Assembly: GCA_016860985.1 (NCBI GenBank)
Contig: BOKM01000001.1
Coordinates: forward strand, 856,040 to 920,039
Reading direction: 5' to 3'
Source: Patescibacteria group bacterium
Lineage (GTDB): Bacteria > Patescibacteriota > Dojkabacteria > GCA-002793355
Length of the DNA: 64,000 bases
Positions 14,103 to 32,887 of this stretch are shown piece by piece. Under the pieces are notes generated by a model. The model was not told the origin of the DNA. It was given only the letters and a program-made list of their open reading frames with translations, and did not search any database. Every line of letters starts with the position of its first letter. Within the stretch, counting starts at the first letter, position 1. Position numbers and translations under genes: made by a program.

Positions 14103-16637
14103 TTGTGGAGTGCCTGTTGGGAATGGTGTCAAACACAGTTCTTATCAACTCCAGGTACGTGTCAATATAATGCTGATGGTCCTCGAAATTGTTGGGTTAA
14201 TGAATTTCCTGCTGGTGGTGTAGATAACTGTAGTTGGAGCGATTTTGGAAGTGCACCACCCTATTCCGGCTATTCTGGAATGACACAATCTCAAGAAACA
14301 TCAATTGCCGAAACCTTCTTGTCATACAATACACTTGATAATGTCTACCCCATGCTAAGTATACAAAAGGCAGTTTCTGTGAGTGATGGTCTCATTCTCT
14401 ACTATTACCTTTACGAAATGGATTATGACACTACCCCCTCTACCAATACGGCGAGTTATTACATTCAAAAACTTGATGCGACTGGGGAACCTCAATTTGC
14501 AGGCAGGGGAATTGATGTGACTGCTATTCAAGCAGTGAGCGAAATTGCGGATGTGCATGTTTACGAAGATGGTATCGTCACAATCGGAAATTACGATACG
14601 GATCTAGATGGTTATGAGGATACGGTAAAAATGCAGAAATACGATTTCAATTTGACTCCTGCATTCCCCGGAGATGGCGTTGAAGTCTTTCAGCATATTG
14701 ATCCTGCAGTTGGAGTCTACGCGTATTCCACCATGTCTGGCAGTAAAGTAGGCACCTTAATCGAGCTTTGGCATGATTCAATTCCAGCGTCTGGAAATGT
14801 ATATAAGGTTTATACTCAGACAATGGATTTGCTTGGGAATAAGCTCCTTGATACCAATGGTGTTCTTATTGCCGATAGCTCTGATAGTCCAGAGCCAGAA
14901 TATGCATGGGATATTTACCCCGATAATAACGGTGGATTTTACTCATTGGTTTACTATCTTGCGTCTACGCCAAGTCCTGATCGAGTATTTAGGCTTACGC
15001 AAGTAACATCATCAAATGAGATGAAATATTCAACTATTCGAGGGCTACAACTCCCCATTAGTGACAATGATGGATCTCGTATGGTAGTTACTGGCACAAC
15101 GCCATATATATTCGCCTACGGTTTTGGCCCGTATTTCCAAAAAACATATGCGCTGCGTGATGTTTATCAGGTAGACCTTGCAGATGGCTGGACTGCCATT
15201 AATGTAGAAAATGACCGTAACGTCGAAGCAAGTTCAGACTATGGTGCAGATGATGCTACTGTCGAATTGCATATCAAAGTTGGAGGAGAATTAGTTGCTG
15301 GCCCGACTATAGATTTAACTGCCGATAGAAACTGGCTGACTGTCGGAGGGAGTGTTGATGCACCAAATTACAAGAGTATCTTGTTTAATCTCTCAAATGC
15401 AGCGGGAGTAACGGCAGGGCAAAATGTAATGTATGTTCCAAGTCACGCAGATCATCCGAATGTTCGTGTCTGCCCAGGGGCAATAAGTGGGTTTGAAGTG
15501 ATTACTGCTGATTGTGCTGATGGAGTAAATTTCGACGACGGTGATACTCGCACTGTAACGTATCAGTCTGGTGATGCATCAATAACGGCAACAAAAGTAA
15601 CTGTTGATAGTGCTCCATATTGGAAGTTAGTCGGAGCAAAAGGAACAGGGGCTGTAAGCGGTACTTATCCTACTGCGTCTGCGAGTGTTCCTACAGTAAC
15701 GAGTGACAGCGTGGTCGGAATTATTAGTAGTGCAGCCACAGTAAACGGAAATGTCACTAGTGATGGCGGCTCTGCCATCACCGAACGAGGTGCGGTGTAT
15801 TCGAGTACCTCAACTACTCCAACGCTTTCGGACACAAAACAAATTGCGTCTGGTACCACAGGAGCTATGACCTTTGCCATAGTCGGCTTGCAATCTGGTA
15901 CACACTACTACCTGCGAGCGTACGCCACCAATGCAGAGGGGACTGCCTACGGGAGTGTAATTGAGTTTGACACTCCAGCATCGGCAGGTACCAGCCCAAC
16001 AGTAACCACAGGAGCCGTAAGTAGCATCGGAGAAACGGCGGCAACAGTGGCGGGAGATGTAACCTCAGATGGAGGAGAAACCATTACTGAACGAGGTATT
16101 GTGTTCTCCTCATCGAACAATACGCCAACAACGGCAAACGGAAAGTTTACGGCAGCAGGAACGACTGGTGCCTACACGGCAACTTTGACCGGCCTGACGC
16201 TCAATACGATCTACTACGCGAGAGCGTATGCGATTAACTCAGAAGGAACAAGCTACGGGAGTGTGGTAACGTTTAAAACGTTAGAACCGGCAGCCCTTCG
16301 AAGCGTGTACTTTACCTTCAGTAAGTTCCGCTACAACAAGTATGCATCGCCAACGGCACTTCGTTCTGGAGATACGGCATATATCAAGAACTACAACACA
16401 AGCAAGATTAAACTGATACAGGTATTCTTGTACGACTATGCGAAGAAAGGGAACCAAGGGTTTACCAAGTCAAGAGTAACGACGACCTCGATGTTCCTCA
16501 GAACTAATTACAACCTTCCGACGGGTAAGCGATATGCCTACGTAATGAAGTTCCAAGACAAGGCAACAGGGATTGTAGCCACCAAATACTTTGTGGTGTA
16601 CACGACCAAAACATGGAATGGGCAGAGTACGCTGTAG
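14103..16637 (+). CDS. large surface protein with tandem ~90-aa beta-sandwich (FN3-like) repeats; open frame actually begins at 14043 right after the in-frame TAG
   Basis: 844-aa ORF lacking its own signal peptide; two tandem repeats (…TSDGGSAITERGAVYSSTSTTPT…THYYLRAYATNAEGTAYGSVIEFDT / …TSDGGETITERGIVFSSSNNTPT…TIYYARAYAINSEGTSYGSVVTFKT). Confidence 0.55.
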   Translation: MWSACWEWCQTQFLSTPGTCQYNADGPRNCWVNEFPAGGVDNCSWSDFGSAPPYSGYSGMTQSQETSIAETFLSYNTLDNVYPMLSIQKAVSVSDGLILYYYLYEMDYDTTPSTNTASYYIQKLDATGEPQFAGRGIDVTAIQAVSEIADVHVYEDGIVTIGNYDTDLDGYEDTVKMQKYDFNLTPAFPGDGVEVFQHIDPAVGVYAYSTMSGSKVGTLIELWHDSIPASGNVYKVYTQTMDLLGNKLLDTNGVLIADSSDSPEPEYAWDIYPDNNGGFYSLVYYLASTPSPDRVFRLTQVTSSNEMKYSTIRGLQLPISDNDGSRMVVTGTTPYIFAYGFGPYFQKTYALRDVYQVDLADGWTAINVENDRNVEASSDYGADDATVELHIKVGGELVAGPTIDLTADRNWLTVGGSVDAPNYKSILFNLSNAAGVTAGQNVMYVPSHADHPNVRVCPGAISGFEVITADCADGVNFDDGDTRTVTYQSGDASITATKVTVDSAPYWKLVGAKGTGAVSGTYPTASASVPTVTSDSVVGIISSAATVNGNVTSDGGSAITERGAVYSSTSTTPTLSDTKQIASGTTGAMTFAIVGLQSGTHYYLRAYATNAEGTAYGSVIEFDTPASAGTSPTVTTGAVSSIGETAATVAGDVTSDGGETITERGIVFSSSNNTPTTANGKFTAAGTTGAYTATLTGLTLNTIYYARAYAINSEGTSYGSVVTFKTLEPAALRSVYFTFSKFRYNKYASPTALRSGDTAYIKNYNTSKIKLIQVFLYDYAKKGNQGFTKSRVTTTSMFLRTNYNLPTGKRYAYVMKFQDKATGIVATKYFVVYTTKTWNGQSTL

Positions 16638-16676
16638 TGTGGGTTGCATCCTAACCCATAGTTGCTACAATAGGCA

Positions 16677-17993
16677 ATGCGTTTTCTGATTGTAACTCCA
16701 GAAATGGAGGACACAAATTATCGTGGAGTGCAGTTTGTCACCAAGCATGTGCTTAGGGGGCTGTCTGAACAGGGGCACGAAGTAGTCTTGTTAACTAGCC
16801 ACCCGAAGGTCAAAATAAACGTTAAATCAGAAAAGTTACGATGGCGTGTACTCAATACTTATTTTCGGCAGTACTTACAGATAGGTGCGCAGTTAACTAA
16901 AAGAATGGCTCCGCGGGCAGGTACTTTTACTAGTATTTTCAAATTCCTTGTTGCTCTTTTCAGAAAGGCTCCAGTTATTGTAGTGGATAAAACACAGACC
17001 TCAGGATTGAACTTAGTAAAATACATCGATAAAGCTGTTAATCTTCCTTTCTTTTACCGAATGGCAGTTGCAATGCCAAAATTTTTTAGAAAACTAGCTA
17101 TCGAAAAAATTGCAAAACAGGTAAAAGCAGATGTCGTTTACTATACCTTTCCATTAGCTGTTCCTAAACTCTCTTCTAGCAAAGTTATCCATATTATCTA
17201 CGACCTTATCCCATACGAAATAACTGAGGAACCGGTAGAAAACGAATGGCTAAGTAAACTTGCAAAACGAATTGATTACGTTTCTCATAACTCTGATCTT
17301 ATTTTTACTATTTCTCAGGATTCTGAAAACAAGATAAAAGAAGTTGAGCCGCATGCAAAGGTTATGAATATTGGCGCAGCTATGTCGGCCTTCGAATACG
17401 AGCTCGCTGGGTACACTCATGACTCCCCCGTTCTCATAAAAAACAACCTCGTTGGAAAACCTTACCTCCTCTTTATTTCTTCAATCGAAAGACGAAAGAA
17501 CGTTCACCGATTGCTGCAAGCTTTCGTTTCTATTTCCGATAAGACTGATGCTTCACTCGTTATTGTTGGAAACAAAACAGGCGCGTTTAAAGGAATTGCC
17601 GAGGAATTGGATGGAGCTCCGAAAAGTGTCAAAAAGCGAGTTATATTTACAGGTTGGGCATCTGAGTACGACAAATACTCTCTTTTGAAGAATTGTGTTG
17701 CCCTCGTTAACCCCACTCTGTATGAAGGTTTTGGTTTGCAGCCTCTTGAAGCAATGTTAAATCACATTCCTGCAGTTTCTAGTGTTGCAGGTGCGCTTGC
17801 CGAAGTTTGTGGTGACGCTGTCCTAAAGATTCAAGATCCTTATTCTGTACCTGAAATCGCCCATGCCCTACTTCGAATTCTTGAAGATAAAAATCTTCGG
17901 CAAGAGTTGGTCAAAAAAGGAAACATTCAGTCTCAAAAATATACTGAGCAGGTAATGTACAAGCGAATCAAAGAGGCTCTTGAAGCACTCTAG
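16677..17993 (+). CDS. glycosyltransferase family 1 (GT4-like)
   Basis: 438 aa; C-terminal EGFGLQPLEAM and surrounding GT-B fold motifs. Confidence 0.75.
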   Translation: MRFLIVTPEMEDTNYRGVQFVTKHVLRGLSEQGHEVVLLTSHPKVKINVKSEKLRWRVLNTYFRQYLQIGAQLTKRMAPRAGTFTSIFKFLVALFRKAPVIVVDKTQTSGLNLVKYIDKAVNLPFFYRMAVAMPKFFRKLAIEKIAKQVKADVVYYTFPLAVPKLSSSKVIHIIYDLIPYEITEEPVENEWLSKLAKRIDYVSHNSDLIFTISQDSENKIKEVEPHAKVMNIGAAMSAFEYELAGYTHDSPVLIKNNLVGKPYLLFISSIERRKNVHRLLQAFVSISDKTDASLVIVGNKTGAFKGIAEELDGAPKSVKKRVIFTGWASEYDKYSLLKNCVALVNPTLYEGFGLQPLEAMLNHIPAVSSVAGALAEVCGDAVLKIQDPYSVPEIAHALLRILEDKNLRQELVKKGNIQSQKYTEQVMYKRIKEALEAL

Positions 17994-18727
17994 ATCGTGT
18001 TGGTTGCGCTTTTGTAAACCTCAATGCCCTCTTTTACTGAGTTGTAGGTAGTTACTTTGCCTTGATTTACAATAAGTAATTTTTTGCAAAATCCTTCAAT
18101 TGTTGGTAAAGAATGCGAGATAAGCAGCAGTGTTTTTCCTTGTTGCTGTAACCGTTGAAAAATCGCTTTACTCTTTTCTTGAAATGCCAAATCACCTACT
18201 GAGAATACTTCGTCAAGTAGGTAAATGTCTGCTTCTGACATAAAAGCGATAGAAAAAGCGAGCCGTACTTGCATTCCAGACGAATAATTTTTTAGAGGCA
18301 AGTCAATAAACCGTTCTAGTTCAGCAAATTCGACAATTTCATCAAATTTCTTTTCTAAAAATTTGCGGGACATTCCAAGTATGATGCCGTTAAGAAAAAC
18401 ATTCTCTCTCCCGGTTAATTCTGGGTTAAAACCGACCCCAAGCTCAAGGAAGGGAACAACCTTACCTTGAATGATTATCTTTCCAGAATCGGGGAGATAA
18501 ATTGATGCAAGCAACTTTAGGAGTGTTGACTTTCCAGCACCATTGACTCCTACAATTCCAACGGTATCACCATTTTCAATTTCGAAACTACAGTTATCGA
18601 GTACTTTTAATGTATCCTGCTCTCTTTTTGTAGCAAAAGGGTTTGACAGAAATTCGGTAATCGATGTTTGTTTACGGTGTGGAATCTTAAACGACTTCGA
18701 GAGATTTTTGACTGTTATGGCAGGCAT
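17990..18727 (-). CDS. ABC transporter ATP-binding protein, polysaccharide/teichoic-acid exporter type (Wzt/TagH-like)
   Basis: Walker A GIVGVNGAGKSTLLKLL, ABC signature YSSGMQVRLAFSIA, Walker B IYLLDEV; 245 aa without C-terminal carbohydrate-binding domain. Confidence 0.8.
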   Translation of the reverse strand: MPAITVKNLSKSFKIPHRKQTSITEFLSNPFATKREQDTLKVLDNCSFEIENGDTVGIVGVNGAGKSTLLKLLASIYLPDSGKIIIQGKVVPFLELGVGFNPELTGRENVFLNGIILGMSRKFLEKKFDEIVEFAELERFIDLPLKNYSSGMQVRLAFSIAFMSEADIYLLDEVFSVGDLAFQEKSKAIFQRLQQQGKTLLLISHSLPTIEGFCKKLLIVNQGKVTTYNSVKEGIEVYKSATNTI

Positions 18728-19488
18728 TAGAAAAATTCAGCGATTTTAGGTAAGGTCTTTTTGAACACAACGTACCCTGCAAAAGTAAAGACAACGATGA
18801 CGGCAGATAGTACAAGTACAGAGACCAAATTCGGTGCATCAACAGATGGGAGTAATCCACTTCGAATAAGTGTGAGCAACGTAACCAACGGATTGAAGTT
18901 TTTGATTAAGTTTGCAATGTGAGGAGGGAGCTGTTCAAGTGAATAGAAGACTGGTGTTGCCCAGAAAATGAGTTGTAGGAGCAACTCGATAAGATGCTTT
19001 ATGTCGTGGTATTTAATACTAATAATACTTGTATAGAAAGCAATTCCTAGTAAGAACAAAGATAGTAGCAGAAATCCAATTATGAAATTGTACCAATGAG
19101 CCGAAAAAAGCGTCTCTTTAGAAGCAATTCTAAAAGAAAAGTATATTCCAAGATTTATTAAAAAGTTTACCATTGCGATAGCAATGGCACTAAGTACTAC
19201 TATCTCTCTCGGAAAATTAACCTTAAGAATTATGTGTGCTTTATTGAAGAGTGATTGCAGCCCAAAGTTCACGCCTTCGGTAAAGTAGCTCAACGTTAAA
19301 ATCCCGAGCAAAAGATACGAAGCATAGTTTTCAGTATTGCCAAAAAGAGAGGTCCAAATGGTGTGTAAGACGACGTAATACGAGAGTGGTTTAAGTATCA
19401 CCCACAAAAATCCAAGATATGAATGCTTGTAACGAAGCTTGAAATCAGTCACAAAGAACTCTCTGAGGAGGTCAGCGTAATTTCCCAT
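18727..19488 (-). CDS. ABC-2 type exporter permease (Wzm/TagG-like)
   Basis: 253 aa, 6 TM segments, ATGA-coupled to the ATPase gene downstream. Confidence 0.7.
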   Translation of the reverse strand: MGNYADLLREFFVTDFKLRYKHSYLGFLWVILKPLSYYVVLHTIWTSLFGNTENYASYLLLGILTLSYFTEGVNFGLQSLFNKAHIILKVNFPREIVVLSAIAIAMVNFLINLGIYFSFRIASKETLFSAHWYNFIIGFLLLSLFLLGIAFYTSIISIKYHDIKHLIELLLQLIFWATPVFYSLEQLPPHIANLIKNFNPLVTLLTLIRSGLLPSVDAPNLVSVLVLSAVIVVFTFAGYVVFKKTLPKIAEFF

Positions 19489-19551: not shown

Positions 19552-20469
19552 ATGTTTAACAAATATATCAATAAAGCAAAAAAATTTGCAATCGAAATGC
19601 TCCATGGTACCAAAACGATTCAATCTCGCTTGGAAAATCTAGAAAGGATGTTGGAGTTATTCAGAAACGAATACAAGTTCTCACCAAGAAATGTCTTTAT
19701 GATTAATGAAAATATTGGAATTACTAAAATTGAAACGGGACAGAAGCTCTTTATTGACCGAAATGACTTATCACTTGCCCCGCACTTGGTACTTGATGGC
19801 AGATGGGAACCCTCAGTAGCAAAATGGCTAATGGAAAACTATGACACTGCTTCAACATTTCTTGATGTAGGGGCAAACTTTGGATATTTCTCAATATATT
19901 TAGCATCTGTAACAGATAATACTCGCGGAGGTAAAGTAATTGCGATTGAGCCAAATCCGCATATGTCTGACCTCATTCGTAAAAGTGTTTCAATTAATGG
20001 ATTTGATAATCGAGTTAAAATAGTTGCGTGTGCTGTCGGCGATGAAAAGTGCGAACTACCTTTGTATGAATCAAAAGATGGTTTACTTGGGAGCACGACA
20101 CTTCGTAAGACTAATAGTTACATAAGACAAACTAAGTTGGTCGAAGTCGATACGCTAGATTCTATTATTGCAAATGAAAAAATTGAAAACATCGGACTAA
20201 TCAAAATGGATATTGAAGGATTTGAAGAAAAGGCATTCAAAGGAATGGCTAAATTAATTGCAAATAATAAATCACTTAAAATTTTGTTAGAGTTCTCTCC
20301 ATTACTATATGAAAAACCAATCATATTCTTTACAAAGATACTAGACAGTTTTACCTATATTGCGGTGCTTGATGAGGACGGAAAGGAAATACCAATTGAC
20401 AGATACGAGCAGATTGTAGAATATTCAAGACTTGGTCATTGTGACATTGTTATGTACAACAAATCATGA
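19552..20469 (+). CDS. FkbM-family SAM-dependent methyltransferase
   Basis: FLDVGANFGYFSIY SAM-binding motif and overall FkbM-domain layout; stop overlaps next start (ATGA). Confidence 0.6.
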   Translation: MFNKYINKAKKFAIEMLHGTKTIQSRLENLERMLELFRNEYKFSPRNVFMINENIGITKIETGQKLFIDRNDLSLAPHLVLDGRWEPSVAKWLMENYDTASTFLDVGANFGYFSIYLASVTDNTRGGKVIAIEPNPHMSDLIRKSVSINGFDNRVKIVACAVGDEKCELPLYESKDGLLGSTTLRKTNSYIRQTKLVEVDTLDSIIANEKIENIGLIKMDIEGFEEKAFKGMAKLIANNKSLKILLEFSPLLYEKPIIFFTKILDSFTYIAVLDEDGKEIPIDRYEQIVEYSRLGHCDIVMYNKS

Positions 20470-21317
20470 TCTACTTCTCGCATATCCCCAAAACTGCTGG
20501 AACAACACTCAGAAGTTTCATATCGCAGTTTTTCCCAGAAGATAGAATATTTTCAGCTCAATTATGGAATGAACTGGAAAATCCAGAAATGACTGATTGG
20601 AGTAAATATGATTTTGTTTCGGGACATTTTGGCCATGCTTTGACAACGTACCTACCAGATAATACTAAAACCATAACAATGCTCAGAGACCCAATTCAAA
20701 GGACTGTCTCGCAATATAATCATGTGGTCTCTGATCGCTATTTTGAACATAAAATTGGTAAAAGAAGAATTAAAGATATTGGAAATGGGGACATGAATTT
20801 AATGTTACAAGATGCTGAATGTGCTGACTATTTTTCAAATATCCAGCTCAAGTTCATTGCCCTTTCGTGTAAACCAGTTGAACGGGGTATGGTATCTTTC
20901 GGAAACTGGGAAGAAACAATTATAAATAACTCAAAGGCTCAACTGTTAGATTTGGCATTAAATAGAGTATCCAAATACTATTTCTTGGGTATTCAGGAAT
21001 TTTTTGAACAATCATATTTGTTACTAAGTTACAAAGAAGGGTTCCATCCATATTTTGATGGAGAAAGACGAATGGTGATGGAAAAAAAATTACAGTTTAA
21101 TAGCATTAAGGATGAACTGCTTGAAAAACTTTACGAAATAAACGACCTCGATTTGAAATTATATAGTTATTCTGTGGAAATTTTCAAAAAAGATTATAAC
21201 AATATGTGCGAAAAAATATGTAGTAGTTTAGGAGTTTCTATTCCTGATTTCAGTGATACCGCAAGTATAAAAGATTTATTAGTAAAGTATCAAAAGATTA
21301 ATAAGAATATCCAATGA
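20466..21317 (+). CDS. sulfotransferase-family protein
   Basis: N-terminal IYFSHIPKTAGTTLRS matches the HIPKTGGT PAPS-binding (5'-PSB) motif of Sulfotransfer_2/3-type enzymes. Confidence 0.5.
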   Translation: MIYFSHIPKTAGTTLRSFISQFFPEDRIFSAQLWNELENPEMTDWSKYDFVSGHFGHALTTYLPDNTKTITMLRDPIQRTVSQYNHVVSDRYFEHKIGKRRIKDIGNGDMNLMLQDAECADYFSNIQLKFIALSCKPVERGMVSFGNWEETIINNSKAQLLDLALNRVSKYYFLGIQEFFEQSYLLLSYKEGFHPYFDGERRMVMEKKLQFNSIKDELLEKLYEINDLDLKLYSYSVEIFKKDYNNMCEKICSSLGVSIPDFSDTASIKDLLVKYQKINKNIQ

Positions 21318-21366
21318 CATGTGCCCTTGAACAATACCTGCTTTATACTCTATAATACGAATTAGT

Positions 21367-21438
21367 CCAGAGGTAGCTCAATGGTAGAGCAGGAGACTGT
21401 AAATCTCTTGGTTAGGGGTTCAAGTCCCTTCCTCTGGA
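21367..21438 (+). tRNA. tRNA with anticodon GUA (Tyr by anticodon), class I architecture (5-nt variable loop), C1:G72, A73, no encoded CCA
   Basis: Hand-folded: acceptor CCAGAGG/CCTCTGG, T8A9, D-arm GCTC-AATGGTA-GAGC, anticodon arm GGAGA-CTGTAAA-TCTCT (GACTGTAAATC as in E. coli tRNA-Tyr), variable TGGTT, T-arm AGGGG-TTCAAGT-CCCTT, discriminator A, followed by T8 run. Confidence 0.75.
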
Positions 21439-21451
21439 TTTTTTTTATGCC

Positions 21452-22399
21452 CTACTCTCCCTTCCCTAAATTGCAGTCAAATGAGAGTGTCGCCTCAGTA
21501 ACGTTTGGAGGTGCCGTAAATTTGAACTTTGGTGGTATTTTGTCTGTATAGGCAATAGTTTGTCCTTTTGAGTCTCGAGCACGCACAGAAAATTTAACTT
21601 GCAGCCCTGTTAAATTTTTGATGTTTGTCGTCCTCGAGTTTAGGCTAAATGTCAGTAATGAGGATTTTTCCATCTCGCTCTTTAGTATTGTGGTACTTAC
21701 ACAGGGTTCAATTTGGCTCCCCGCAGCAGCGTGATAAGCACAACTCCGAACCAAATAATCGGTAATTCGTTCATCGCACGTTGCTGAAGTAATTGCACTG
21801 TTACCTGTAGGTTTGGTGACCGTTACTTTTAGGTTGACTCTATGCTTTGAAGATGCGGGATATGGTGTGGGTGTTGGCGTTGGCTTAACACCAAGGTTAC
21901 AGAAATAATTCAATACAAACGTTGCGGTCCCGTTTGCTGCTACGAACGGTCCCTGGATGTTCTGTTTTTTCGCAATCATTCTTCCGTTTAGATCGTAAGC
22001 TTGAATCGTATAATAGGCACGGTAATAAGAATCTCCAACATTATTCGCTATTTCGTCTCTGTCCCGATTGTCAACTCTGAAGTCTAGTACCATTGGTTCA
22101 AACTCATTGGTCCCTAATTGTATGGTTTTTGATGTAGAACCGATGATTCGTTTCCCAACTTCTTTATACACGTACGCAGTTACTTTATATTCCTTAACAG
22201 TGCCACATATTTCGGGTACTGAATTATCGATAATAAATGTTGTAGGAAGCGTAAATTTTGTAGTTGCTCTCCCAAATGCAGCATTCGGGTCAACATTAAA
22301 AAGTTGTGTGGTAACAAAATAACCAAGTACAAATACTGAAAGTAGCGCTGCTAGTGATACTACGATTTTCTTTACTGGGGAGGTGTTTTGTTTTTTCAT
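21452..22399 (-). CDS. secreted hypothetical protein (two domains joined by PTPTPTP linker)
   Basis: 315 aa; N-terminal TM/signal (IVVSLAALLSVFVLGYFV); no family recognised. Confidence 0.4.
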   Translation of the reverse strand: MKKQNTSPVKKIVVSLAALLSVFVLGYFVTTQLFNVDPNAAFGRATTKFTLPTTFIIDNSVPEICGTVKEYKVTAYVYKEVGKRIIGSTSKTIQLGTNEFEPMVLDFRVDNRDRDEIANNVGDSYYRAYYTIQAYDLNGRMIAKKQNIQGPFVAANGTATFVLNYFCNLGVKPTPTPTPYPASSKHRVNLKVTVTKPTGNSAITSATCDERITDYLVRSCAYHAAAGSQIEPCVSTTILKSEMEKSSLLTFSLNSRTTNIKNLTGLQVKFSVRARDSKGQTIAYTDKIPPKFKFTAPPNVTEATLSFDCNLGKGE

Positions 22400-22437
22400 A
22401 CATCACTATATGACAAAGGAATTATGAATACAATAAT

Positions 22438-24258
22438 TTATTGCTTATTGAGTGAAGAAATAGCGCGAAGAGCGATATCCTTCGAAGTCGCGAAATCCAA
22501 AGGACCTATTAATTCTTCTGGGCAGGCTTCTCGTACCACATCTGGTATATCTTTATATTCTCGATATATTCTATTTTTTGGTAGGACAATTCCTAGTGCG
22601 CGCATGTCAATTTCATCTTGTGCATTTACCGCATCCAATCGGAAGAGCGTTAATTCCCTTCCATCTTTTGCAAACGCGCGGAACAGTACTCCTCTAAAAC
22701 TACTAGTTTCAATCTGTACCGAAATTAGTCGTAGGTTAGTTTCTAATCGCTCATCTTCTGCGTATTCAATAGCTCGAATAGTTTCTGATGGAGAAAGAAA
22801 GCCTTTCTTTTCACAGCGGACAAATATCGATCGCGTTTTATATTCTTCAGTTGTTCTTGCTCGTTGCGAAGCGGCTCCAACAGTTATAGTATTACTTCCC
22901 CAATCCTTGTGAACAGTAAACCCTGAGCGAAATTTTTCTACGATTGCCCATGTGGTACCACCATTCGTGTCGCCAATTCCATATGAAAGGAGCCGCCCCC
23001 ACGTAAGCTTTTCTGAAGTCCTTCCCCTAATATCATCTGATAAATATATCGAATAGATACTTCGGTGATGCAGTAAATCAAGTGTAGAAAGAAGTAGGTG
23101 TGCACTTTCAGTAAAATCAACTCTTCCGCTTTCTTGGGGAGATAATCCGTTCGCATTTTCCATTGCGACTCTTACTGATGCAACATCTGGTGTCTGTTCA
23201 ATTTTTACTCCGCGTTGCGCGAGTAACGCTAATCCTTGTGAAATGGCGGGATCTTCTTGTTCTACAAAGGCGGGAATGGGAAGGTCCTTTTTTATAAATT
23301 CTATAAGGTGTTTGGCACCTTCCACCGGCGATTCTCTGTATCTTCGTAGGTAAACAAATACATCCGATTCAAAGCCTTGAGCTATCGTACCTGGTGAAGC
23401 GACCATGGTAGGATTCCTATCTGGTGCGATTTGTGGTCCAACGGGACTTGCCCACAAGTTCGGGAGCATTTGTCGTAGTCTTTTTGTTGGTGATGATGCG
23501 GTCGCAGGCATATCTGGGGCTTCGGGCGAAGTAATCGGTGCCCGTGGTTGTTGATACCCGTGAATGTCGGGGTGCAGCATGCCATTGGAAGATGTGTCCA
23601 TCCACGCGTAACGCACCGCTTTTTGATCTTGTTGGTTTTGAGCGTAGATTATTGTGTCATAAGCCAATCGGGTGTCAGCAGGTGCTGATTTATCTTTTGC
23701 TCTGGGGGCTGTCTTGGCCTTTATAAAAATTGTGGGAACATCAGTACCCTCTTTGGGTGGAGTCCTTTGGATAAGTAGCCCAACTTTTTGAATGGAATAA
23801 TCGGGGTACCACTCTCCCACCTTCAAATCTGGATAAAAATCTGTTGGTGAGTCATCTCTTTTTTGCTTCAGTTGATAGGGTTTTATAACGATGGTAACAG
23901 AAAAATGCCCATAATCTACTGTGCTGCATCGGGCACGGTACTCCGTAAGCGGTGTGCGATGCGCAGGAGAAATCATAGTCGATTCTGGATATTCGTCTCT
24001 GTCCATATCGTAAATCCTTTTATTCTCTGCCTTTGGGTTAAAAACTTTCCATTTTGAGGTCGGAATAAGAGTATCGTCCTGTCCCAATGTTTCTGTAGTT
24101 GCTTCGAGTCCAAAATCGGCTGGCGGAAATCCAAATTCTTCGAGCACTCTACGTGCTTTATCGGTCACTTGCACCAGTGCAACCGTTTCTGCTTGTTCGT
24201 TGCGAACCACTTTCTTTTCTACTGGTTCAGGTCTAGCCGATGTTTTCCACAACTGCAT
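22438..24258 (-). CDS. large hypothetical protein (606 aa), compositionally atypical (GC-richer)
   Basis: Long uninterrupted ORF; no recognisable catalytic motif; local GC ~50% versus ~30-45% elsewhere. Confidence 0.45.
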   Translation of the reverse strand: MQLWKTSARPEPVEKKVVRNEQAETVALVQVTDKARRVLEEFGFPPADFGLEATTETLGQDDTLIPTSKWKVFNPKAENKRIYDMDRDEYPESTMISPAHRTPLTEYRARCSTVDYGHFSVTIVIKPYQLKQKRDDSPTDFYPDLKVGEWYPDYSIQKVGLLIQRTPPKEGTDVPTIFIKAKTAPRAKDKSAPADTRLAYDTIIYAQNQQDQKAVRYAWMDTSSNGMLHPDIHGYQQPRAPITSPEAPDMPATASSPTKRLRQMLPNLWASPVGPQIAPDRNPTMVASPGTIAQGFESDVFVYLRRYRESPVEGAKHLIEFIKKDLPIPAFVEQEDPAISQGLALLAQRGVKIEQTPDVASVRVAMENANGLSPQESGRVDFTESAHLLLSTLDLLHHRSIYSIYLSDDIRGRTSEKLTWGRLLSYGIGDTNGGTTWAIVEKFRSGFTVHKDWGSNTITVGAASQRARTTEEYKTRSIFVRCEKKGFLSPSETIRAIEYAEDERLETNLRLISVQIETSSFRGVLFRAFAKDGRELTLFRLDAVNAQDEIDMRALGIVLPKNRIYREYKDIPDVVREACPEELIGPLDFATSKDIALRAISSLNKQ

Positions 24259-24273
24259 GTTTTTTAGGAAAGG

Positions 24274-25533
24274 TTAGTTCTGTTGCAACTCTCGTTCAAT
24301 CTCCATCAATCTGTTGTATTTACTGACACGTTCGCCTCGAGTTGGACCCACTTTAACATAAGCACTGCCAACTGCAACCGCAAGGTCGGAAATGAAGTGA
24401 TCATTTGTTTCTCCACCTCCTCGATGTGAGGTAATGGTTATTAGGCCATGCTCATTTGCTATTTTGCAACATGCAACTGTTTCTGAAAGTGTGCCAATTT
24501 GGTTTGGTTTGATAATGATTCCTGTAATGGCGTCGAGTTCAATTGCCTTTCTGAGTCTCGAAATATTGGTAACAGTTAGGTCATCTCCGATATGCTTAAT
24601 CCCCTTCTCCTTCAAAAGCTTATTCAAGGCAACCCAGTTATCCCAGTCATCTTCTGCTAGCAAGTCTTCTAATGACACAAATGGATATTTGTCTAAAAGT
24701 TCTGAGTAGTAGTTGATTAACTCTTCACCAGTAAACTGTCGGCCTTCTAGTTTAAGCTCATAGTTCCCATTAAAGAATTCACTCGCAGCGGCATCTACTG
24801 AAATTCCAAGTTCTTTTCCAGGAGTAAAACCGGCTTTTGTGATTGCCTGCACAATGTATTCAAACGGTGCTTCGTTGGTTGGTATGCCGTTTGGTGCAAA
24901 TGCTCCTTCGTTGCCAACGTTTGTGGAAAGCTTGCTCGCTTTTAGAATTTTTTTAAGTTGATGGTAGGTTTCAAGTGCTTTCCGTATGTTTTCGGTGACA
25001 CTCCCCCCTTCTTTCGCGGTAATACAAAATTCTTGAAAATCGGTTGTTTCGTCTGCATGCTTTCCTCCTTCTATCACTACAACCATTGGCTGAGGTAGTT
25101 TGGTTAAATCAGTAATTAGCCCGTAGGTCTGCATAATGTACTTATAAAGAGGCATTCTGTTTGCGTTTGCTACTGCTCTTGCAACTGCAAGTGATACTGC
25201 GAGTATTGCATTCCCGCCCAATCGTGCTTTATTGACTGTACCATCTAGCCGAATCATCGCTGTGTCAATTTCTACCTGATTCTCGGCTGGAATATTTGTA
25301 ATTGTGGGGAGAATCTCGTTGAGAATATTTGAAATTACTGTTAAGTTTCCTTGTCCATTCCAACGTGACATATCTCCGTCTGTGAGAACGGTAGCTTCAT
25401 GGGTACCAGCAGAAGCCCCGTAAGGAACCGATGCAACACCAACAGAACCAGTATCTAGTGTCACTTTTACCTCAACTGTTGGATACCCGCCAGAAGCAAG
25501 AATTTCGTAAGCAATTAGTTTTGCAATTTTCAT
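24274..25533 (-). CDS. eno: enolase (phosphopyruvate hydratase)
   Basis: MKIAKLIAYEILASGGYPTVEVKVTLDTGSVGVASVPYGASAGTHEA... and C-terminal SHRGGETND motif; ORF-track 5' extension to 25677 rejected in favour of the conserved MKIAKL start (ATG at 25531-25533 complement). Confidence 0.9.
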   Translation of the reverse strand: MKIAKLIAYEILASGGYPTVEVKVTLDTGSVGVASVPYGASAGTHEATVLTDGDMSRWNGQGNLTVISNILNEILPTITNIPAENQVEIDTAMIRLDGTVNKARLGGNAILAVSLAVARAVANANRMPLYKYIMQTYGLITDLTKLPQPMVVVIEGGKHADETTDFQEFCITAKEGGSVTENIRKALETYHQLKKILKASKLSTNVGNEGAFAPNGIPTNEAPFEYIVQAITKAGFTPGKELGISVDAAASEFFNGNYELKLEGRQFTGEELINYYSELLDKYPFVSLEDLLAEDDWDNWVALNKLLKEKGIKHIGDDLTVTNISRLRKAIELDAITGIIIKPNQIGTLSETVACCKIANEHGLITITSHRGGGETNDHFISDLAVAVGSAYVKVGPTRGERVSKYNRLMEIERELQQN

Positions 25534-25622: not shown

Positions 25623-28592
25623 TTGCTATACTGCCTCGTGGATACTGCCTTGTTATCTTTAGGAGTTGGTTTTGCAAATTTGTGTATTGGTGTCATTGTC
25701 CTTATTAGAGGAAATGGTGTGAAACTTGCCCGAGACTTCTTCGTACTTTCTTTTTTGTGTGGTTTATGGGCAGCATTTGATTACCTCTCTGCCTCATCGA
25801 ACTCCGCATATTTCGCTTGGTACTACGGAGGTTTTAGAACTGTTATGTCCTATGTTGCAGTCGTCTACTTATTAAAATTTGTGTTTCAGTATGTTGGCAA
25901 ATATTCTTCCATAGCAAAAGGTGTAGTTGGGCTTTTGCTTTTTATTTCTCTGGGGCTCTCCTATATCCGCTTTTTTACTCCATTACTAGTTCTTGAAATG
26001 ATTTATCGTAATGGGGAGTTTAGGATAATGCCGGGGCCACTTTATTTCGGTCCAGTTTCGGTAATGTTTGCACTCGCAATTATTTCTGGCTACTTCTTGT
26101 GGAGATACTACAAGGGACTTCAAACACATGAATCAAAAACAAAGGTTGGAATTATGTTGTTTGGCTCTTTTACCTCTATTATTATTGCGATAATCGCGTA
26201 TGGAGTATTACCATTATTTGGGATTGGTGGTACCAGCATTGGTGTCGGAGCAATGGGATTATTTCCCCTGTTTGTTGGATTATCAATACTTAGGTACGAC
26301 CTAGATACAAACCTATCGTTTACTGCCGGAAGTCTACGTTCAAAAATATTTTCTGCTGCAATGGCAGCAACTTTCTTTGTAATTATTCCTTCACTTATAC
26401 TTTTGAATGTAATTTTTGTACGAGATATTACTGTTCGAGGCAGTTTTCAGCTGAACGAAGATGTCATCGAAAAACGCGCTGTCATCAGTAATTATCTCAG
26501 TGACATTACGGCACGAGCACAAACTTTAGCGCAATCAGAAACGGATGAAATGACTAGTGAGCGTTTGCAGCATGAAATAGAAGAAAGTAAAGGTACCACG
26601 AGCGAGATCCTTACACTGTCTATTATAGATTCTTCCGGAAGTTCAATCGTTTCCGCCTATCCGCACAGCAGGGAATTAGAATCGTGGGTCGGTGACTTAT
26701 CATTAAAATCCGCTCAGTTACTTGGGGCTTACAATAGTGGAACTTCGATGATGCCTGTGGTTGCTGCTCCAATTCCATCTGGCGTTTATGCGGGGTACTA
26801 TTTTTTGGTTGGATTTGCGCCAACTGATTTCTATAGCGCAACTACGGAAGAGGCAATGTCATTGTTTAACACCTCTAAAGCGTACGTACTGGATAAACAG
26901 GGAGTACTAGTGACTCCTTATGGGAGTTATACGTCATTTATTGGCAGTAGTCAGAATGCTCCTACCAGGCATGTATCGTGCGAAGAACCTCTTAGCTCCG
27001 GGAGTTTCACTTTTTCGAAATATTTAGATGTAAGAGGTATTCCTGTAGTTGGGACCGGCGTACCGATTGCAAACAACGGTTGGTGTCTTATGGTTGAAGT
27101 AGATAAAGAAGAGATTGAAGCTACAAGTAGAACGATGATTGTCTCCACAATGGCGATTGGAATGTTAAGTGTTATTTTTGTAACTCTTGTAGCCGAATTA
27201 CTTGGAGCACTAATATCAAAACCAATCGGGCAGGTTAAAGAAGGTGTTGCAAGAATTATGTCAGGAGATTTTTCTACTCCTGTTGCTGTTGACACGCAAG
27301 ACGAGATTGGGGAACTTTCGCGTGCTTTTGACGAAATGACTGTAGAACTAAAAGATGCGCAAGAGAATATCACCGCAAAAGTTAGGTCGCAAACGCAAGA
27401 TCTTGAAGCGCAGCGAAGTGATTTGCTTAAACAGCAAAAGCAGATGATTTCTCTCCTCTCTGAATTAGAAGATGAAAAAGAAAGAACGGACATATTAGCG
27501 CGTGACCTAGAGAAATTTAAACAAGCTGCTGATGCTGCAAACGATCATATTGTAATCACTGACACAGAAGGTCGTATCATTTACGCAAATAAATCGGTTA
27601 AACGAATCACTGGTTTTGATCCAGAAGAAATACTTGGGCAAAAAGCAGGAAGTCGAGAGAACTGGGGCGGTCAAATGCCTTTAGCGTTTTACAAAAAGCT
27701 TTGGAAGACGATCAAAGTTGATAAGAAGCCGTTTAAGGGAGAAGTTACAAATAAGAAGAAAAATGGAATGTTGTATACTGTAGTTGCTTCAATTTCTCCT
27801 GTTAAGGACAATAAAGGTAACGTACTGTTCTTTATCGGTTTAGAACGAGATATTTCTAAAGAGAAGGAGATTGACAGAGCAAAGAGCGAGTTTGTTTCAT
27901 TGGCTTCTCATCAATTAAGAACGCCACTTTCGGCAATTAATTGGTATGCAGAGATGCTTATCGACGGAGATGCTGGAAAATTAAACAAAGAACAACAACA
28001 GTACGTCAAAGAAATTTATGATGGAAACCGTAGAATGGTCGATTTGGTAACGGCGCTTCTGAATGTTTCTCGGCTTGAACTTGGAACCTTTATGGTAGAG
28101 CCAACACTACAATCATTGCAAGATCTAGCCACTCAAGCGCTTAAAGAAATGGAACCAATGCGAAAGGCAAAGCAGATTAAGATTCACCAGCAATTTGATA
28201 AATGCGAGCCGCTCATGGTGGACAAAAAGCTTATGTATATAATCTTCCAGAATCTGATTTCGAATGCACTGAAATATACTCCTCAAAAAGGTGAAGTCAC
28301 AGTCTCGATACAAAAGAAATCAAAGTATATCAACATTAAAGTAGCTGATAATGGTATGGGAATTCCCAAAGAAGAGCTGCCAAAATTGTTCGAAAAGTTG
28401 TATCGAGCAAGTAACGCAAAAGAAAGTGCAACAGAAGGAACAGGACTTGGTTTGTACATTGTAAAAGCCATACTTGACGCAACCGAAGGGAAAATCGAAG
28501 TCGATTCTACCATTGGTAAAGGTTCTGTGTTTACAGTTAAAATTCCCTTGTCAGGAATGAAGCCAAAACTTGGTTCAAAGAAGCTAACTTAA
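25623..28592 (+). CDS. multidomain sensor histidine kinase (N-terminal 7-TM module, extracytoplasmic sensor, HAMP, coiled coil, PAS, HisKA, HATPase_c)
   Basis: 989 aa; PAS (DHIVITDTEGRIIYANKSVKRITGF), H-box SHQLRTPLSAI, G-boxes DNGMGIP / GTGLGL. Confidence 0.8.
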   Translation: MLYCLVDTALLSLGVGFANLCIGVIVLIRGNGVKLARDFFVLSFLCGLWAAFDYLSASSNSAYFAWYYGGFRTVMSYVAVVYLLKFVFQYVGKYSSIAKGVVGLLLFISLGLSYIRFFTPLLVLEMIYRNGEFRIMPGPLYFGPVSVMFALAIISGYFLWRYYKGLQTHESKTKVGIMLFGSFTSIIIAIIAYGVLPLFGIGGTSIGVGAMGLFPLFVGLSILRYDLDTNLSFTAGSLRSKIFSAAMAATFFVIIPSLILLNVIFVRDITVRGSFQLNEDVIEKRAVISNYLSDITARAQTLAQSETDEMTSERLQHEIEESKGTTSEILTLSIIDSSGSSIVSAYPHSRELESWVGDLSLKSAQLLGAYNSGTSMMPVVAAPIPSGVYAGYYFLVGFAPTDFYSATTEEAMSLFNTSKAYVLDKQGVLVTPYGSYTSFIGSSQNAPTRHVSCEEPLSSGSFTFSKYLDVRGIPVVGTGVPIANNGWCLMVEVDKEEIEATSRTMIVSTMAIGMLSVIFVTLVAELLGALISKPIGQVKEGVARIMSGDFSTPVAVDTQDEIGELSRAFDEMTVELKDAQENITAKVRSQTQDLEAQRSDLLKQQKQMISLLSELEDEKERTDILARDLEKFKQAADAANDHIVITDTEGRIIYANKSVKRITGFDPEEILGQKAGSRENWGGQMPLAFYKKLWKTIKVDKKPFKGEVTNKKKNGMLYTVVASISPVKDNKGNVLFFIGLERDISKEKEIDRAKSEFVSLASHQLRTPLSAINWYAEMLIDGDAGKLNKEQQQYVKEIYDGNRRMVDLVTALLNVSRLELGTFMVEPTLQSLQDLATQALKEMEPMRKAKQIKIHQQFDKCEPLMVDKKLMYIIFQNLISNALKYTPQKGEVTVSIQKKSKYINIKVADNGMGIPKEELPKLFEKLYRASNAKESATEGTGLGLYIVKAILDATEGKIEVDSTIGKGSVFTVKIPLSGMKPKLGSKKLT

Positions 28593-28603
28593 TAATTTTG
28601 TAA

Positions 28604-28984
28604 GTGAAAATCGTTCTAGTGGTCGAAGACTACACCCCTCTCTTTCGTGCGGTCAATGAAAAGTTTTTACGTTTCGGAATAACTGCGGTGCAAGTTGTCA
28701 GTTATGACGAAGCTACAAAATATCTGGTTGAACACGCAGAGAATATCGGTTTAGTTTGGTTAGATCACTACCTTATCGGAGAAAAAACAGGACTGGATGT
28801 ACTCGCATTCATGAAGGACAAGAATAATATGAAGGATATACCCGTTCTGGCAGTATCAAACGAGTCGAATCATAATCGAATGAAGCAGTACAAAGCGCTT
28901 GGTGCAAAAGAGTACTACATTAAAGTAGGAAACCGACTTGCAGAAATTGCAGAAGAAGCAAAAAAACTCTTATCTGTTGAGTAG
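28604..28984 (+). CDS. single-domain response-regulator receiver (CheY-like)
   Basis: 126 aa; KIVLVVED...VWLDHYL (phospho-acceptor Asp)...VLAVSNES...K; no output domain. Confidence 0.55.
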   Translation: MKIVLVVEDYTPLFRAVNEKFLRFGITAVQVVSYDEATKYLVEHAENIGLVWLDHYLIGEKTGLDVLAFMKDKNNMKDIPVLAVSNESNHNRMKQYKALGAKEYYIKVGNRLAEIAEEAKKLLSVE

Positions 28985-29019
28985 TGTTGCTACAACCTCC
29001 GTTAGTGAAGTAATTGAAA

Positions 29020-29412
29020 CTACTGTTCTTTCCAACTCTCAATTATTATTGAGGTCGCTACACTATCAACTACAACTTGAATCCTCTTAGTACTTTCTCC
29101 ATTTGTTGCAGATACAGGAATAGTGTAGCTGCCAAGAGAACTAGTGATTGTTCCAATCGAACAATCCTGAGTACCTGAGAGGGTAATGCTCTCGTTGCCT
29201 GTGTAAGAGGTACTGATTCTCAGTTTTTCAAGCGCGATTTCTGCGCACGACTCTGCTGCGTAAGCAGCCTTTTCTCCCTCTCTTAACACCTTCGCAGAAA
29301 TCGCATTATCAGTAGACTGAAAAAGCATAAGGCTTGCGATAATTGCAGATACTGAACCCAAAATGAGTACGGTCGTGATTGCGGTAGAGGCCTTTGTGCG
29401 TAATTTGCTCAT
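29020..29412 (-). CDS. small N-terminally membrane-anchored protein, last gene of pilus operon 1
   Basis: 130 aa; hydrophobic N-terminus, start overlaps upstream gene stop (ATGA). Confidence 0.35.
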   Translation of the reverse strand: MSKLRTKASTAITTVLILGSVSAIIASLMLFQSTDNAISAKVLREGEKAAYAAESCAEIALEKLRISTSYTGNESITLSGTQDCSIGTITSSLGSYTIPVSATNGESTKRIQVVVDSVATSIIIESWKEQ

Positions 29413-29933
29413 AGTCCAGGTCGAATAACAATTGAAGTGGCATAGTTTCGCTGATAGGATAAATCGTTTCTTCCACCGGGGTTACTGTACGAAGCGGTAA
29501 AGCTAACGTTTACGACACTTAACGTTGTCGACACGGCAACTCTTCTGAAGCTCAAATTACTCAGCACTACTCTATTTGAGGTTAGCAATGTAGTGCTTCC
29601 TGGAGTTGTAGTTTGTTGAAGTACTCCTCCGTTCAAAGAATAAGATCTATTGTATGCAGGAGTACCTGTTCGAGCATAAGTGAGTGTATTTCCTGTTGCT
29701 CCTGGTGCAGGTGCTGAAATGCTTTGTGCATCTTTTAGGTCACGTTTTAGAAGTTGCATAACCATCATTGCTTCGTTTTCTACTTCAATAACAGACTGTT
29801 GCTTGTTGCGTGCGGTGAACATCTCTCTTACCACTCCACCAATTGCAAAAATCATGCCTGAAAGCAACGCCATGTACAAAAGCACTTCGACGAGGCTAGA
29901 TGCTTTAAGTTTTAAAATAGGTTTATTCTGCAT
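29409..29933 (-). CDS. pseudopilin-like protein (prepilin-type N-terminus with Glu+5)
   Basis: MQNKPILKLKA|SSLVEVLLYMALLSGMIFAIGG: hydrophobic helix with E at +5 after a putative A|S processing site. Confidence 0.45.
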   Translation of the reverse strand: MQNKPILKLKASSLVEVLLYMALLSGMIFAIGGVVREMFTARNKQQSVIEVENEAMMVMQLLKRDLKDAQSISAPAPGATGNTLTYARTGTPAYNRSYSLNGGVLQQTTTPGSTTLLTSNRVVLSNLSFRRVAVSTTLSVVNVSFTASYSNPGGRNDLSYQRNYATSIVIRPGL

Positions 29934-31422
29934 CGAGAATCACAATTTCATTAGTATTGTCTGTTGTGCCAATGTAGGCGCGGTCGTTAACTGAATCCCA
30001 CGCAACGCTTCGGTAGGTCGAAGCAGCTGCGTTATACAATCCGCGGCGAACCGGCGCGGTTGGTGTCGAGAAATCTACGACTTCAAATTCGTTTGTAGCA
30101 CTTGCGGTCGCGAGAAATAGAAAGCTGCGTGCTGGGTCAACATCCGCATCATAAATCAAATACGCTGCTGTATAAGCTCCAAGGTATGTGGGGGAATTTG
30201 GGGTAGATACATCATAAAAATATATTTGGGAGCCGGTTACAGTGCCCGATCTGCGGTACAAAATCAACACATCTCCACTCACAATCATATCAAAACGACC
30301 GGTGATGGTAGTTGGTAAATTGACTGTGTTGTCGAGAGAAGGTGCCGCCGTGTTACTAACGTCAATCACATGCAGTTCTTGCGCTGTATTCGAGGTCGTC
30401 ACATACACGTAGGTATTATCTCGAACAAGTACGTCGTAATAGGTAGCCGAAGATTGGAGTACACCTTGTGCAGTGTATGTTGTGGTCCCGGTATTTTGTA
30501 GTATGTTAAATTCGGCGGTGGTTCCATTTGCTGTACGTGTTACATATAGTGTATTTCCATTCGCTGTAATTCCGTTCGCATCTGTATTCCCTGACATATT
30601 TAATGTTCCAATCAGATTTCGCGTTGATGCATCAATTCCTGTAACTTCTCTAGTATTGTTGGCACTTGAATAATAGAACCTACGAATTCCATCTCCTGCT
30701 AGATATCTATGCCCAACGTCAGTATGTACAGCATTTAGGTTAACATTACTACCTTGGCTGATTGTTGGAAAGGCAGAAACATCAAAGGAGGTAAAATAAG
30801 AAGATCTGGAACCGTTAAGTAAAAGTGCGTAAAGTACTCCACCGTAGAATTTAAGGTAGGTCACATCATAGGCGGTTGTGGTAATCGCATGGTTTTTATT
30901 AAACACAGGAGTCTGCCAAGCAACGGTTGGAGGTGTAATGATGTCCTGCCAATTGGTGAGCATGGTAATAACTGACTCTGAGCCCGTTCTACCCGCATTG
31001 TTCCAACTTACCGTAACAGTCGCGAGTTTTCGCTCTACAGTTGGGGCAGTTATGGTCACAGACCGTGTGTAGATTCCTCCTTCTAACGACTCCGAACTTC
31101 CGGAGAGAATCCAATCGGTGCCGTTAAAAGAAAACCCGTAGGTACCATTCGGTAAATTTGTTAATGCATCTTTTCGAATATAACGTAACAATTCTGCTCC
31201 TTCAGAAGCATACCTTATTGCAGTCTTTTGTGTGTTTGGAATCTTTGTAGTGCTAATGCTGTAGGTAAGTGCACCGATTAAGAAGGTCGCATATGCCATA
31301 AATATCGAGATGGCAAGGATAATTTCTACTGCACCAGAGCCAGAGAGCCGATATCGTTTAAAAATTTTAGTTATACGTAAGCCTTCCATCTGTTGAAAAC
31401 ACAATTGATTTTGCATCTGCAC
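29923..31422 (-). CDS. large pseudopilin-like protein (499 aa) with prepilin-type N-terminus
   Basis: …RLSG|SGAVEIILAISIFMAYATFLIGAL: Gly at -1, Glu at +5, long Thr/Asn-rich body typical of tip/minor pilins. Confidence 0.45.
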   Translation of the reverse strand: MQMQNQLCFQQMEGLRITKIFKRYRLSGSGAVEIILAISIFMAYATFLIGALTYSISTTKIPNTQKTAIRYASEGAELLRYIRKDALTNLPNGTYGFSFNGTDWILSGSSESLEGGIYTRSVTITAPTVERKLATVTVSWNNAGRTGSESVITMLTNWQDIITPPTVAWQTPVFNKNHAITTTAYDVTYLKFYGGVLYALLLNGSRSSYFTSFDVSAFPTISQGSNVNLNAVHTDVGHRYLAGDGIRRFYYSSANNTREVTGIDASTRNLIGTLNMSGNTDANGITANGNTLYVTRTANGTTAEFNILQNTGTTTYTAQGVLQSSATYYDVLVRDNTYVYVTTSNTAQELHVIDVSNTAAPSLDNTVNLPTTITGRFDMIVSGDVLILYRRSGTVTGSQIYFYDVSTPNSPTYLGAYTAAYLIYDADVDPARSFLFLATASATNEFEVVDFSTPTAPVRRGLYNAAASTYRSVAWDSVNDRAYIGTTDNTNEIVILDAE

Positions 31423-32886: not shown

Positions 32887-32887
32887 G

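Follow-up and report, generated by a model that had tools for sequence, protein, structure and literature searches.

Two adjacent orphan genes, encoding proteins of 315 and 606 amino acids, separate the enolase gene eno from a tRNA-Tyr gene in a 64,000-nt stretch of contig BOKM01000001.1 (positions 856,040 to 920,039; hereafter the window), which belongs to a Patescibacterium of the Dojkabacteria lineage. The evidence favours, on balance, the interpretation that both are genuine accessory genes of one population, located in a gene-turnover hotspot between eno and tRNA-Tyr, and not an island targeted to the tRNA. An initial annotation of the window had found the pattern compatible with a small horizontally acquired cargo, integrated at the 3' end of the tRNA gene, whose integrase had been lost or was never present. 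The arrangement of two genes between the tRNA and eno was confirmed with the list of open reading frames (ORFs), ARAGORN and Rfam, which agreed on coordinates, lengths and the tRNA call.

The eno-tRNA-Tyr Slot in Related Genomes

The genes for enolase (419 aa, 24274-25533; Enolase_N and Enolase_C are annotated in the orthologues), the 606-aa protein (22438-24258) and the 315-aa protein (21452-22399) lie head-to-tail on the minus strand and converge on tRNA-Tyr (anticodon GTA, 21366-21439, plus strand; Rfam RF00005, 72.8 bits). The start codon of the 606-aa gene is located 15 nt past the eno stop codon, the two orphan ORFs are separated by 38 nt, and 12 nt remain between the stop codon of the 315-aa gene and the 3' end of the tRNA. 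The slot has eno as its conserved left-hand anchor and tRNA-Tyr as its conserved right-hand anchor; the tRNA also flanks it at the related loci L001-L003, L005-L007, L085 and L088.

Using enolase as the query, the nearest other species were found at L005, L006 and L007, the last being the complete genome of Candidatus Dojkabacteria cMAG.26. Their enolases are 82-86% identical at the amino acid level, and all three loci have the backbone gyrB-eno-tRNA-Tyr-(267-282 aa)-TrpR-HisS in common. The content of the slot differs in every one of them. Whether eno directly adjoins the tRNA elsewhere, a question raised by the initial annotation, is answered by L007, where eno is followed by 97 bp and then tRNA-Tyr, with no gene between. 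L005 carries a gene for a 117-aa stand-alone tRNA-binding domain directly after eno (9264-9617; tRNA_bind, PF01588, E = 8e-19), and L006 contains a 4.7-kb cassette of GT4, FkbM methyltransferase, sulfotransferase and ABC-2 exporter genes. Relative to these genomes, the orphan pair appears as an insertion in a variable eno-tRNA slot, and its synteny extends only across one species-level cluster. The gene for the ABC-transporter ATPase of the L006 cassette is called as two ORFs (95 and 155 aa, 7391-8124), possibly a frameshift pseudogene or an assembly error.

All three backbone junctions are expanded in the window. The eno-tRNA junction holds the 2.8-kb orphan pair, and the tRNA-TrpR-HisS junction holds about 8-9 kb of glycan genes. 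At the third junction, about 10.5 kb (25623-36058) separate eno from gyrB (36073-38001), which is located directly upstream of eno in L005, L006 and L007. This region encodes a type-IV-pilus-like cluster (T2SSE, T2SSF, small pilin-like ORFs and an LVIVD-repeat protein) together with two response regulators, a histidine kinase and an NTP-transferase, and is the second insertion of this lineage into the gyrB-eno-tRNA-Tyr backbone.

Coding Status and Selection

Codon alignment of the 315-aa gene with three alleles gave a ratio of non-synonymous to synonymous substitution rates (dN/dS) of 0.04 at a synonymous divergence (dS) of 0.55-0.68, with 88-100 synonymous versus 16-20 non-synonymous differences. 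For the 606-aa gene dN/dS was 0.11-0.13 against L001, L003, L002 and L088; the regional values range from 0.03 in codons 421-531 (the C-terminal beta-rich part) to 0.16 in codons 181-300 (around a Pro/Ala-rich linker). Both frames remain open at 10-18% nucleotide divergence. From the excess of synonymous change in both genes we conclude that the two ORFs are, as judged by their substitution patterns, real protein-coding genes that are translated and under purifying selection. In L001 the homologue of the 606-aa gene is split into two parts (531 and 67 aa), which was considered as a case of pseudogenisation; the split results from a run of N in the scaffold, and the candidate was rejected.

Composition and Search for Integration Signatures

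The initial annotation pointed to a noticeably higher GC content of the larger gene as a sign of foreign origin. A local peak of 0.50-0.52 is indeed present (300-nt windows starting at 23260-23490; z = 3.5), ranking second among five such clusters in the 64 kb, but the GC content of the whole 606-aa gene is unremarkable (0.442, z = +1.3 versus 54 window ORFs). The peak stems from codon positions 1 and 2 (GC1 0.552, GC2 0.437) and not by GC3, the GC content of third positions. Since residues 226-295 (23374-23583, minus strand) are rich in proline and alanine (19% Pro, 11% Ala), and GC1 and GC2 rather than GC3 are raised, the peak is an effect of amino acid composition. GC3 of the two orphans is 0.336 and 0.342, compared to a window mean of 0.354 (standard deviation 0.037), their codon-bias values B are 0.231 and 0.281 (mean 0.278), and the z score of the tetranucleotide distance is 0.37 after GC normalisation and -0.02 in raw form. 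Thus, the composition of the orphan pair is native to the window, and the sliding-window GC and tetranucleotide analyses that had been proposed as a check found it typical and not foreign.

Integration at the tRNA 3' end was not supported either. Probes of 22 and 16 nt derived from the tRNA 3' end matched only tRNA-Tyr itself in the 64 kb with up to three mismatches allowed, so that no copy was found at the distal boundary near eno, where a search for a direct repeat had been suggested. A repeat scan of 20800-25200 detected short repeats at chance level only. No integrase or recombinase was found among the ORFs that were Pfam-scanned between HisS (10757) and gyrB (38001). Of the proposed horizontally acquired cargo, the insertion in a variable slot can be upheld, but the mechanism cannot, since no integrase was found among the scanned ORFs and no attachment (att) repeat in the window, and the composition is native.

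Haplotypes of the Locus

Close relatives of the orphans were obtained from about eight assemblies (L001-L004 and L085-L088), and the loci fall into haplotypes. Haplotype A, with the order eno-606-315-tRNA, is present in the window, L001 and L003. Haplotype B (eno-606-41 bp-tRNA) has no 315-aa gene and is found in L088, a 54.6-kb contig present in three samples; the 606-aa protein encoded there is intact and 91% identical, with a dN/dS of 0.124. Haplotype C is found in L002 (10001-10453), L085, L086 and L087 (sequences P0004 and P0011); here a 150-aa ORF joins residues 1-110 of the 606-aa protein in frame to residues 276-315 of the 315-aa protein. The sequence and the BLAST breakpoints place its junction inside 9-bp CGTGCYCGA repeats, both on the minus strand of the window. 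The upstream copy, CGTGCCCGA (23929-23937), encodes R108-A109-R110 of the 606-aa protein, and the downstream copy, CGTGCTCGA (21575-21583), encodes R273-A274-R275 of the 315-aa protein. Since the junction falls in 9-bp repeats that encode Arg-Ala-Arg in phase, the deletion of 2354 bp is explained by microhomology and not by site-specific excision. The 150-aa fusion ORF stays open in four independent assemblies. In L085-L087 the 3' end derived from the 315-aa gene matches the window at 98.5% identity, and the 606-derived 5' part at only about 82-85%.

With one haplotype reduced to the 606-aa gene and another lacking most of both genes, the pair is shown to be dispensable and separable, although both genes are under purifying selection. 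The 606-aa protein works independently of the 315-aa protein, since haplotype B keeps the 606-aa gene alone. With a dS of about 0.6, the alleles of the 315-aa gene reach the same depth as the most diverged eno genes of the population (0.67). Because the two match, the pair is regarded as old in the population; it was, we infer, present in the ancestor of the population, and haplotypes B and C would represent losses.

Mosaic Ancestry

In comparison to L001, the flanks of the locus are 99-100% identical (eno dS 0.024), and the region 21400-23720 is 81-91% identical. The breakpoint of identity, at about 23720, is located inside the 606-aa gene. The most strain-divergent part of this gene is the Pro/Ala-rich linker, with up to 38 mismatches per 100 nt versus L001. 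The relation is reversed in the comparison with L088, which has a dS of 0.67 in eno and 0.37 in the 606-aa gene, and the identity blocks versus L002 and L088 fall elsewhere than those versus L001. The pair was considered as a hotspot of divergence, which holds versus L001 and not versus L088, where eno is the more diverged gene; this candidate was therefore downgraded to mosaic ancestry. Frequent homologous recombination among strains would produce such mosaic identity blocks and is the probable route by which the pair is exchanged.

A similar pattern was observed in the histidine kinase gene of the gyrB-eno region. Identity of the gene for this 989-aa kinase to L001 drops to 80-89% at 26600-27200 and 27600-28400, compared to 98-100% in its remaining parts and its flanks. 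The diverged stretch, between the seven-transmembrane region and the HAMP domain (residues ~326-526), presumably corresponds to the extracytoplasmic sensor, and recombination appears to have replaced this domain with a diverged allele.

Homologue Searches and Distribution

The initial annotation had seen no recognisable motifs in the 606-aa protein, and this was borne out for both proteins: searches of Pfam, NCBIfam, PHROGs, PADLOC and the PDB sequences returned no significant match for either of them. Sub-threshold noise in the family searches comprised EMP24/GOLD (E = 0.04), ArlS_N (0.05), AbiV (0.19) and arch_flag_Nterm (0.31). The AbiV match in NCBIfam reached 12 bits versus a cut-off of 27, the match of TIGR02537 (arch_flag_Nterm) to the 315-aa protein reached 10.6 bits at a cut-off of 20, and PADLOC-DB contained no family at E <= 1 for either orphan protein.

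Proteins were searched with a word index (5.8 billion sequences) and with an exhaustive HMMER run against 1.84 billion cluster representatives. Both returned only relatives more than 80% identical, with the exception of one spurious match. This sequence, P0006, was evaluated as a distant HMMER homologue and discarded, being a 1302-aa tandem-repeat translation with a score summed from eighteen weak 39-residue matches. Two scans of viral contigs and two scans of Joint Genome Institute metagenome contigs detected no relatives of the orphans, and tblastn against the window and 84 loci detected no paralogues of either. Going by these searches, the pair is confined to a single population, at the level of a species, within a Dojkabacteria-like Patescibacterium.

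Predicted Properties of the Two Proteins

The 315-aa protein had been described as a secreted protein with a PTPTPTP linker; the linker was found, and so was an N-terminal helix that fits export or anchoring. A single strongly hydrophobic N-terminal helix covers residues ~12-30 (IVVSLAALLSVFVLGYFVT, codons 12-30, 22310-22366, minus strand; Kyte-Doolittle 19-residue mean 2.4; AlphaFold2 helix 8-34). It has the properties of a signal peptide or membrane anchor and is compatible with a cleaved as well as an anchored protein. The linker KPTPTPTPYP (residues 172-181; 21857-21886, minus strand) is located between two domains and is also kept in the allele P0003. Cysteines are positioned near the start and the end of each half (C65/C167 and C208, C220, C233/C309). 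The AlphaFold2 model, with a mean predicted local distance difference test score (pLDDT) of 45.5, contains a transmembrane helix and two beta-rich domains of about 110-130 residues. Foldseek comparison of this model with the PDB gave non-significant matches to Ig-like and adhesin-repeat folds (best E about 1e-3, template modelling score ~0.2-0.5 on single domains).

The 315-aa protein is likely extracytoplasmic and surface-exposed, being either N-terminally anchored or secreted, as far as can be judged from the hydrophobic helix and the model. The product would display two beta-sandwich-like, cysteine-bracketed domains on a PT linker at the cell surface, where it might serve in a surface interaction such as attachment or an interplay with phages. 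Its gene is surrounded by genes for surface structures, namely a glycan exporter and modification cassette, the type-IV-pilus-like cluster and the sensor kinase, and the surface interpretation fits because exporter, glycan-modification, pilus and sensor genes make up this neighbourhood. Adhesin-type Ig-like surface proteins (e.g. those with the Cpe0147-like and ester-bond repeat domains that head the Foldseek list) share with the 315-aa protein the N-terminal helix, two beta-rich domains, the PT linker and the bracketing cysteines (C65/C167, C208/C309). The 315-aa protein differs from them in that it has no LPXTG or other wall-anchor motif and no Pfam adhesin domain, and in that its domains show no detectable sequence repeat; the fold matches to this group are non-significant and the model is of low confidence.

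Two further possibilities were rejected for the 315-aa protein. An internal duplication was considered since both domains end in CNLG; BLASTP of the domains gave no alignment. A type IV pilin or pseudopilin was considered in view of the T2SSE/T2SSF cluster nearby; the N-terminus MKKQNTSPVKKIVVSLAALL does not contain the class III signal motif G-F/M-x-x-x-E.

The 606-aa protein contains no hydrophobic segment (maximum 19-residue Kyte-Doolittle mean 0.83), and neither a signal peptide nor a transmembrane segment was found. It is probably a soluble, intracellular or cytoplasmic multi-domain protein. The initial annotation had suggested that the large protein could be a surface or host-interaction factor, which does not agree with these properties; the exported protein of the pair is the 315-aa one. 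The structural and hidden Markov model searches recommended for the 606-aa protein yielded no family and no significant fold: the AlphaFold2 model has a pLDDT of 29.9, and its Foldseek comparison with the PDB gave nothing significant. The low confidence of both models is attributed to insufficient sequence depth. According to the low-confidence secondary structure, the protein would consist of an N-terminal region, the Pro/Ala-rich linker, a helical domain and a beta-rich C-terminal domain; the linker is probably disordered.

Transcription of the Locus

Scans for promoters and terminators in the eno-tRNA interval gave signals at chance level only, and Rfam detected no other RNA families there. 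A Shine-Dalgarno motif precedes neither orphan gene, which is uninformative since just 6 of the 53 window genes have one. Judging from the layout of the genes, eno is probably the first gene of an eno-606-315 transcription unit, and the orphans are probably co-transcribed with it. In addition, a TATAAT-like hexamer ends 4-8 nt before many gene starts in the window (e.g. those of the genes at 1614-3164, 10757-12073, 18727-19488, 36073-38001 and 47290-49644). This suggests that mRNAs with no or very short leaders may be widespread in this genome.

Variable Blocks in the Neighbouring Glycan Genes

The real compositional outlier beside tRNA-Tyr is located on its 5' side, at 19552-21317, where an FkbM-type methyltransferase (305 aa) and a Sulfotransfer_2 protein (283 aa) are encoded. 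The GC contents of the two genes are 0.345 and 0.326 (z about -2.7 and -3.5), and their tetranucleotide z scores are 2.6 and 3.9. In the sister strains L002, L003, L085 and L088 precisely this block is replaced by another sulfotransferase (248-251 aa) and another methyltransferase (313 aa) on the opposite strand, and the L006 versions of the genes share only 36% and 29% identity. The pattern suggests that cassettes of glycan-modification genes have been swapped.

Another outlier lies within the glycan/ABC-exporter cassette, in a large ORF with a weak Fn3 match (14280-16637; 785 aa from the first ATG, with the L002 orthologue called at 1072 aa). The highest GC value of the window (0.543 at about 15761) falls in this ORF, which is also the strongest outlier in tetranucleotide usage (windows 13201-17200).

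Discussion

Chromosomal hotspots of gene turnover that contain no mobile genetic elements (MGEs) and change their content by recombination at flanking core genes have been described, and defence genes are over-represented in hotspots (Oliveira et al., 2017, Nat Commun 8:841; PMC5635113). The eno-tRNA slot resembles these MGE-free hotspots in having conserved bounds, unrelated accessory genes in related genomes, no integrase or other mobile signature found, and a mosaic identity at and across its flanks that would fit homologous recombination. It differs in being defined from about 11 loci and not from a pangenome statistic, in being located in a reduced Patescibacterium genome of about 1 Mb, and in having as its cargo two orphans with no annotatable function. 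In the mechanism we propose, the hotspot would lie in the conserved backbone gyrB-eno-tRNA-Tyr-TrpR-HisS, with slot cargo that differs by lineage and that may be gained, swapped and lost via homologous recombination at the conserved flanks and deletion at short repeats; for an action of an integrase on the tRNA there is no indication.

The alternatives differ in how well they account for these data. That the two reading frames are spurious or decaying, i.e. non-coding DNA or pseudogenes open by chance, is hardly credible: homologues beyond one population are missing, the models are of low confidence and one haplotype has lost most of both genes, but each pairwise comparison of either gene yields far more synonymous than non-synonymous change, the frames stay open between diverged strains, and the split gene in L001 reflects nothing but scaffold Ns. 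An integrase-mediated island in the 3' end of tRNA-Tyr that later lost its integrase is very unlikely and has been largely refuted. Like islands inserted by tyrosine recombinases at tRNA 3' ends, the pair directly adjoins the 3' end of a tRNA, varies in presence among strains and is missing from the slot in L005, L006 and L007. It differs from such islands in that no recombinase was found among the ORFs scanned and no tRNA-derived att repeat in the whole window; GC3, codon bias and tetranucleotide usage do not deviate, the natural deletions end at internal microhomology or at the 606-aa stop codon and not at att-like sites or the tRNA, the slot of relatives carries non-mobile genes, and the allelic depth indicates long residence in the population. 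It is rather unlikely that the genes are old and vertically inherited and were lost independently from the slot in all sampled outgroups. Native composition, deep allelic divergence and the large phylogenetic gap to the nearest outgroups would agree with such a history; however, each of the three outgroups lacks the pair at the slot and has different content there, orthologues of genes with dN/dS of 0.04-0.13 should be detectable and none were found among the 1.84 billion representatives, and the insertions at both neighbouring backbone junctions in the window lineage fit a gain.

The pair might also form an undescribed two-component conflict system, either an anti-phage system composed of a membrane or surface sensor and a cytoplasmic effector, or a host-specificity module, which we consider unlikely. 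The location in a hotspot, the class of locus in which defence genes are enriched (PMC5635113), the strain-variable presence, the orphan status of both proteins with their membrane-plus-soluble architecture and a neighbourhood rich in surface and variable genes speak for it. However, matches in PADLOC, Pfam or PHROGs were not obtained, no nuclease, NTPase or protease family of Pfam or NCBIfam was matched, and the low dN/dS gives no sign of an arms race. The orphans are also not an obligate pair, because the 606-aa gene is intact and selected alone in L088.

Several points weigh against accessory genes in a turnover hotspot, the reading that we prefer. The structure models are unreliable (pLDDT 29.9 and 45.5), the fold matches are non-significant and a function is not assignable. 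The haplotype B junction keeps only weak residual similarity, and its 606-only state may be a loss or ancestral. Recombination was deduced from the mosaic pairwise identity of 4-8 partial loci, and co-transcription with eno from the 15-nt gap and the absence of predicted signals. As to the source of the genes, they may derive from an unsampled relative, from de novo origin or from an old transfer that has since been ameliorated.

Lineage-restricted hypothetical genes are abundant in patescibacterial genomes. The orphan pair resembles the lineage-specific ORFans of the candidate phyla radiation in having no homologues beyond a narrow clade and in belonging to an uncultivated Patescibacterium with a small genome. 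It differs in that coding status, selection, age and natural knock-out haplotypes are documented here, which are rarely available for such ORFans. The locus is an instance of a known phenomenon, in which core genes flank an MGE-free hotspot that is occupied by accessory ORFans of one lineage.

In itself the finding has little impact, since core-flanked hotspots without mobile elements are already well described. The window adds a cleanly documented hotspot from a genome reduced to about 1 Mb, in which the three junctions between gyrB, eno, tRNA-Tyr and TrpR-HisS each took up surface-related cargo, and it demonstrates that a local GC peak beside a tRNA can be wholly an effect of amino acid composition. 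There is a small chance that the two proteins are the first representatives of an as yet undescribed type of accessory module in episymbiotic Patescibacteria, for instance one with a role in host attachment, host specificity or phage resistance. For probing such a module, natural genotypes exist with both genes, with the 606-aa gene only and with the fusion (null) allele. The orphans are selected, old in the population, separable and dispensable, and their knock-out haplotypes could be correlated with host and phage data to approach their function.

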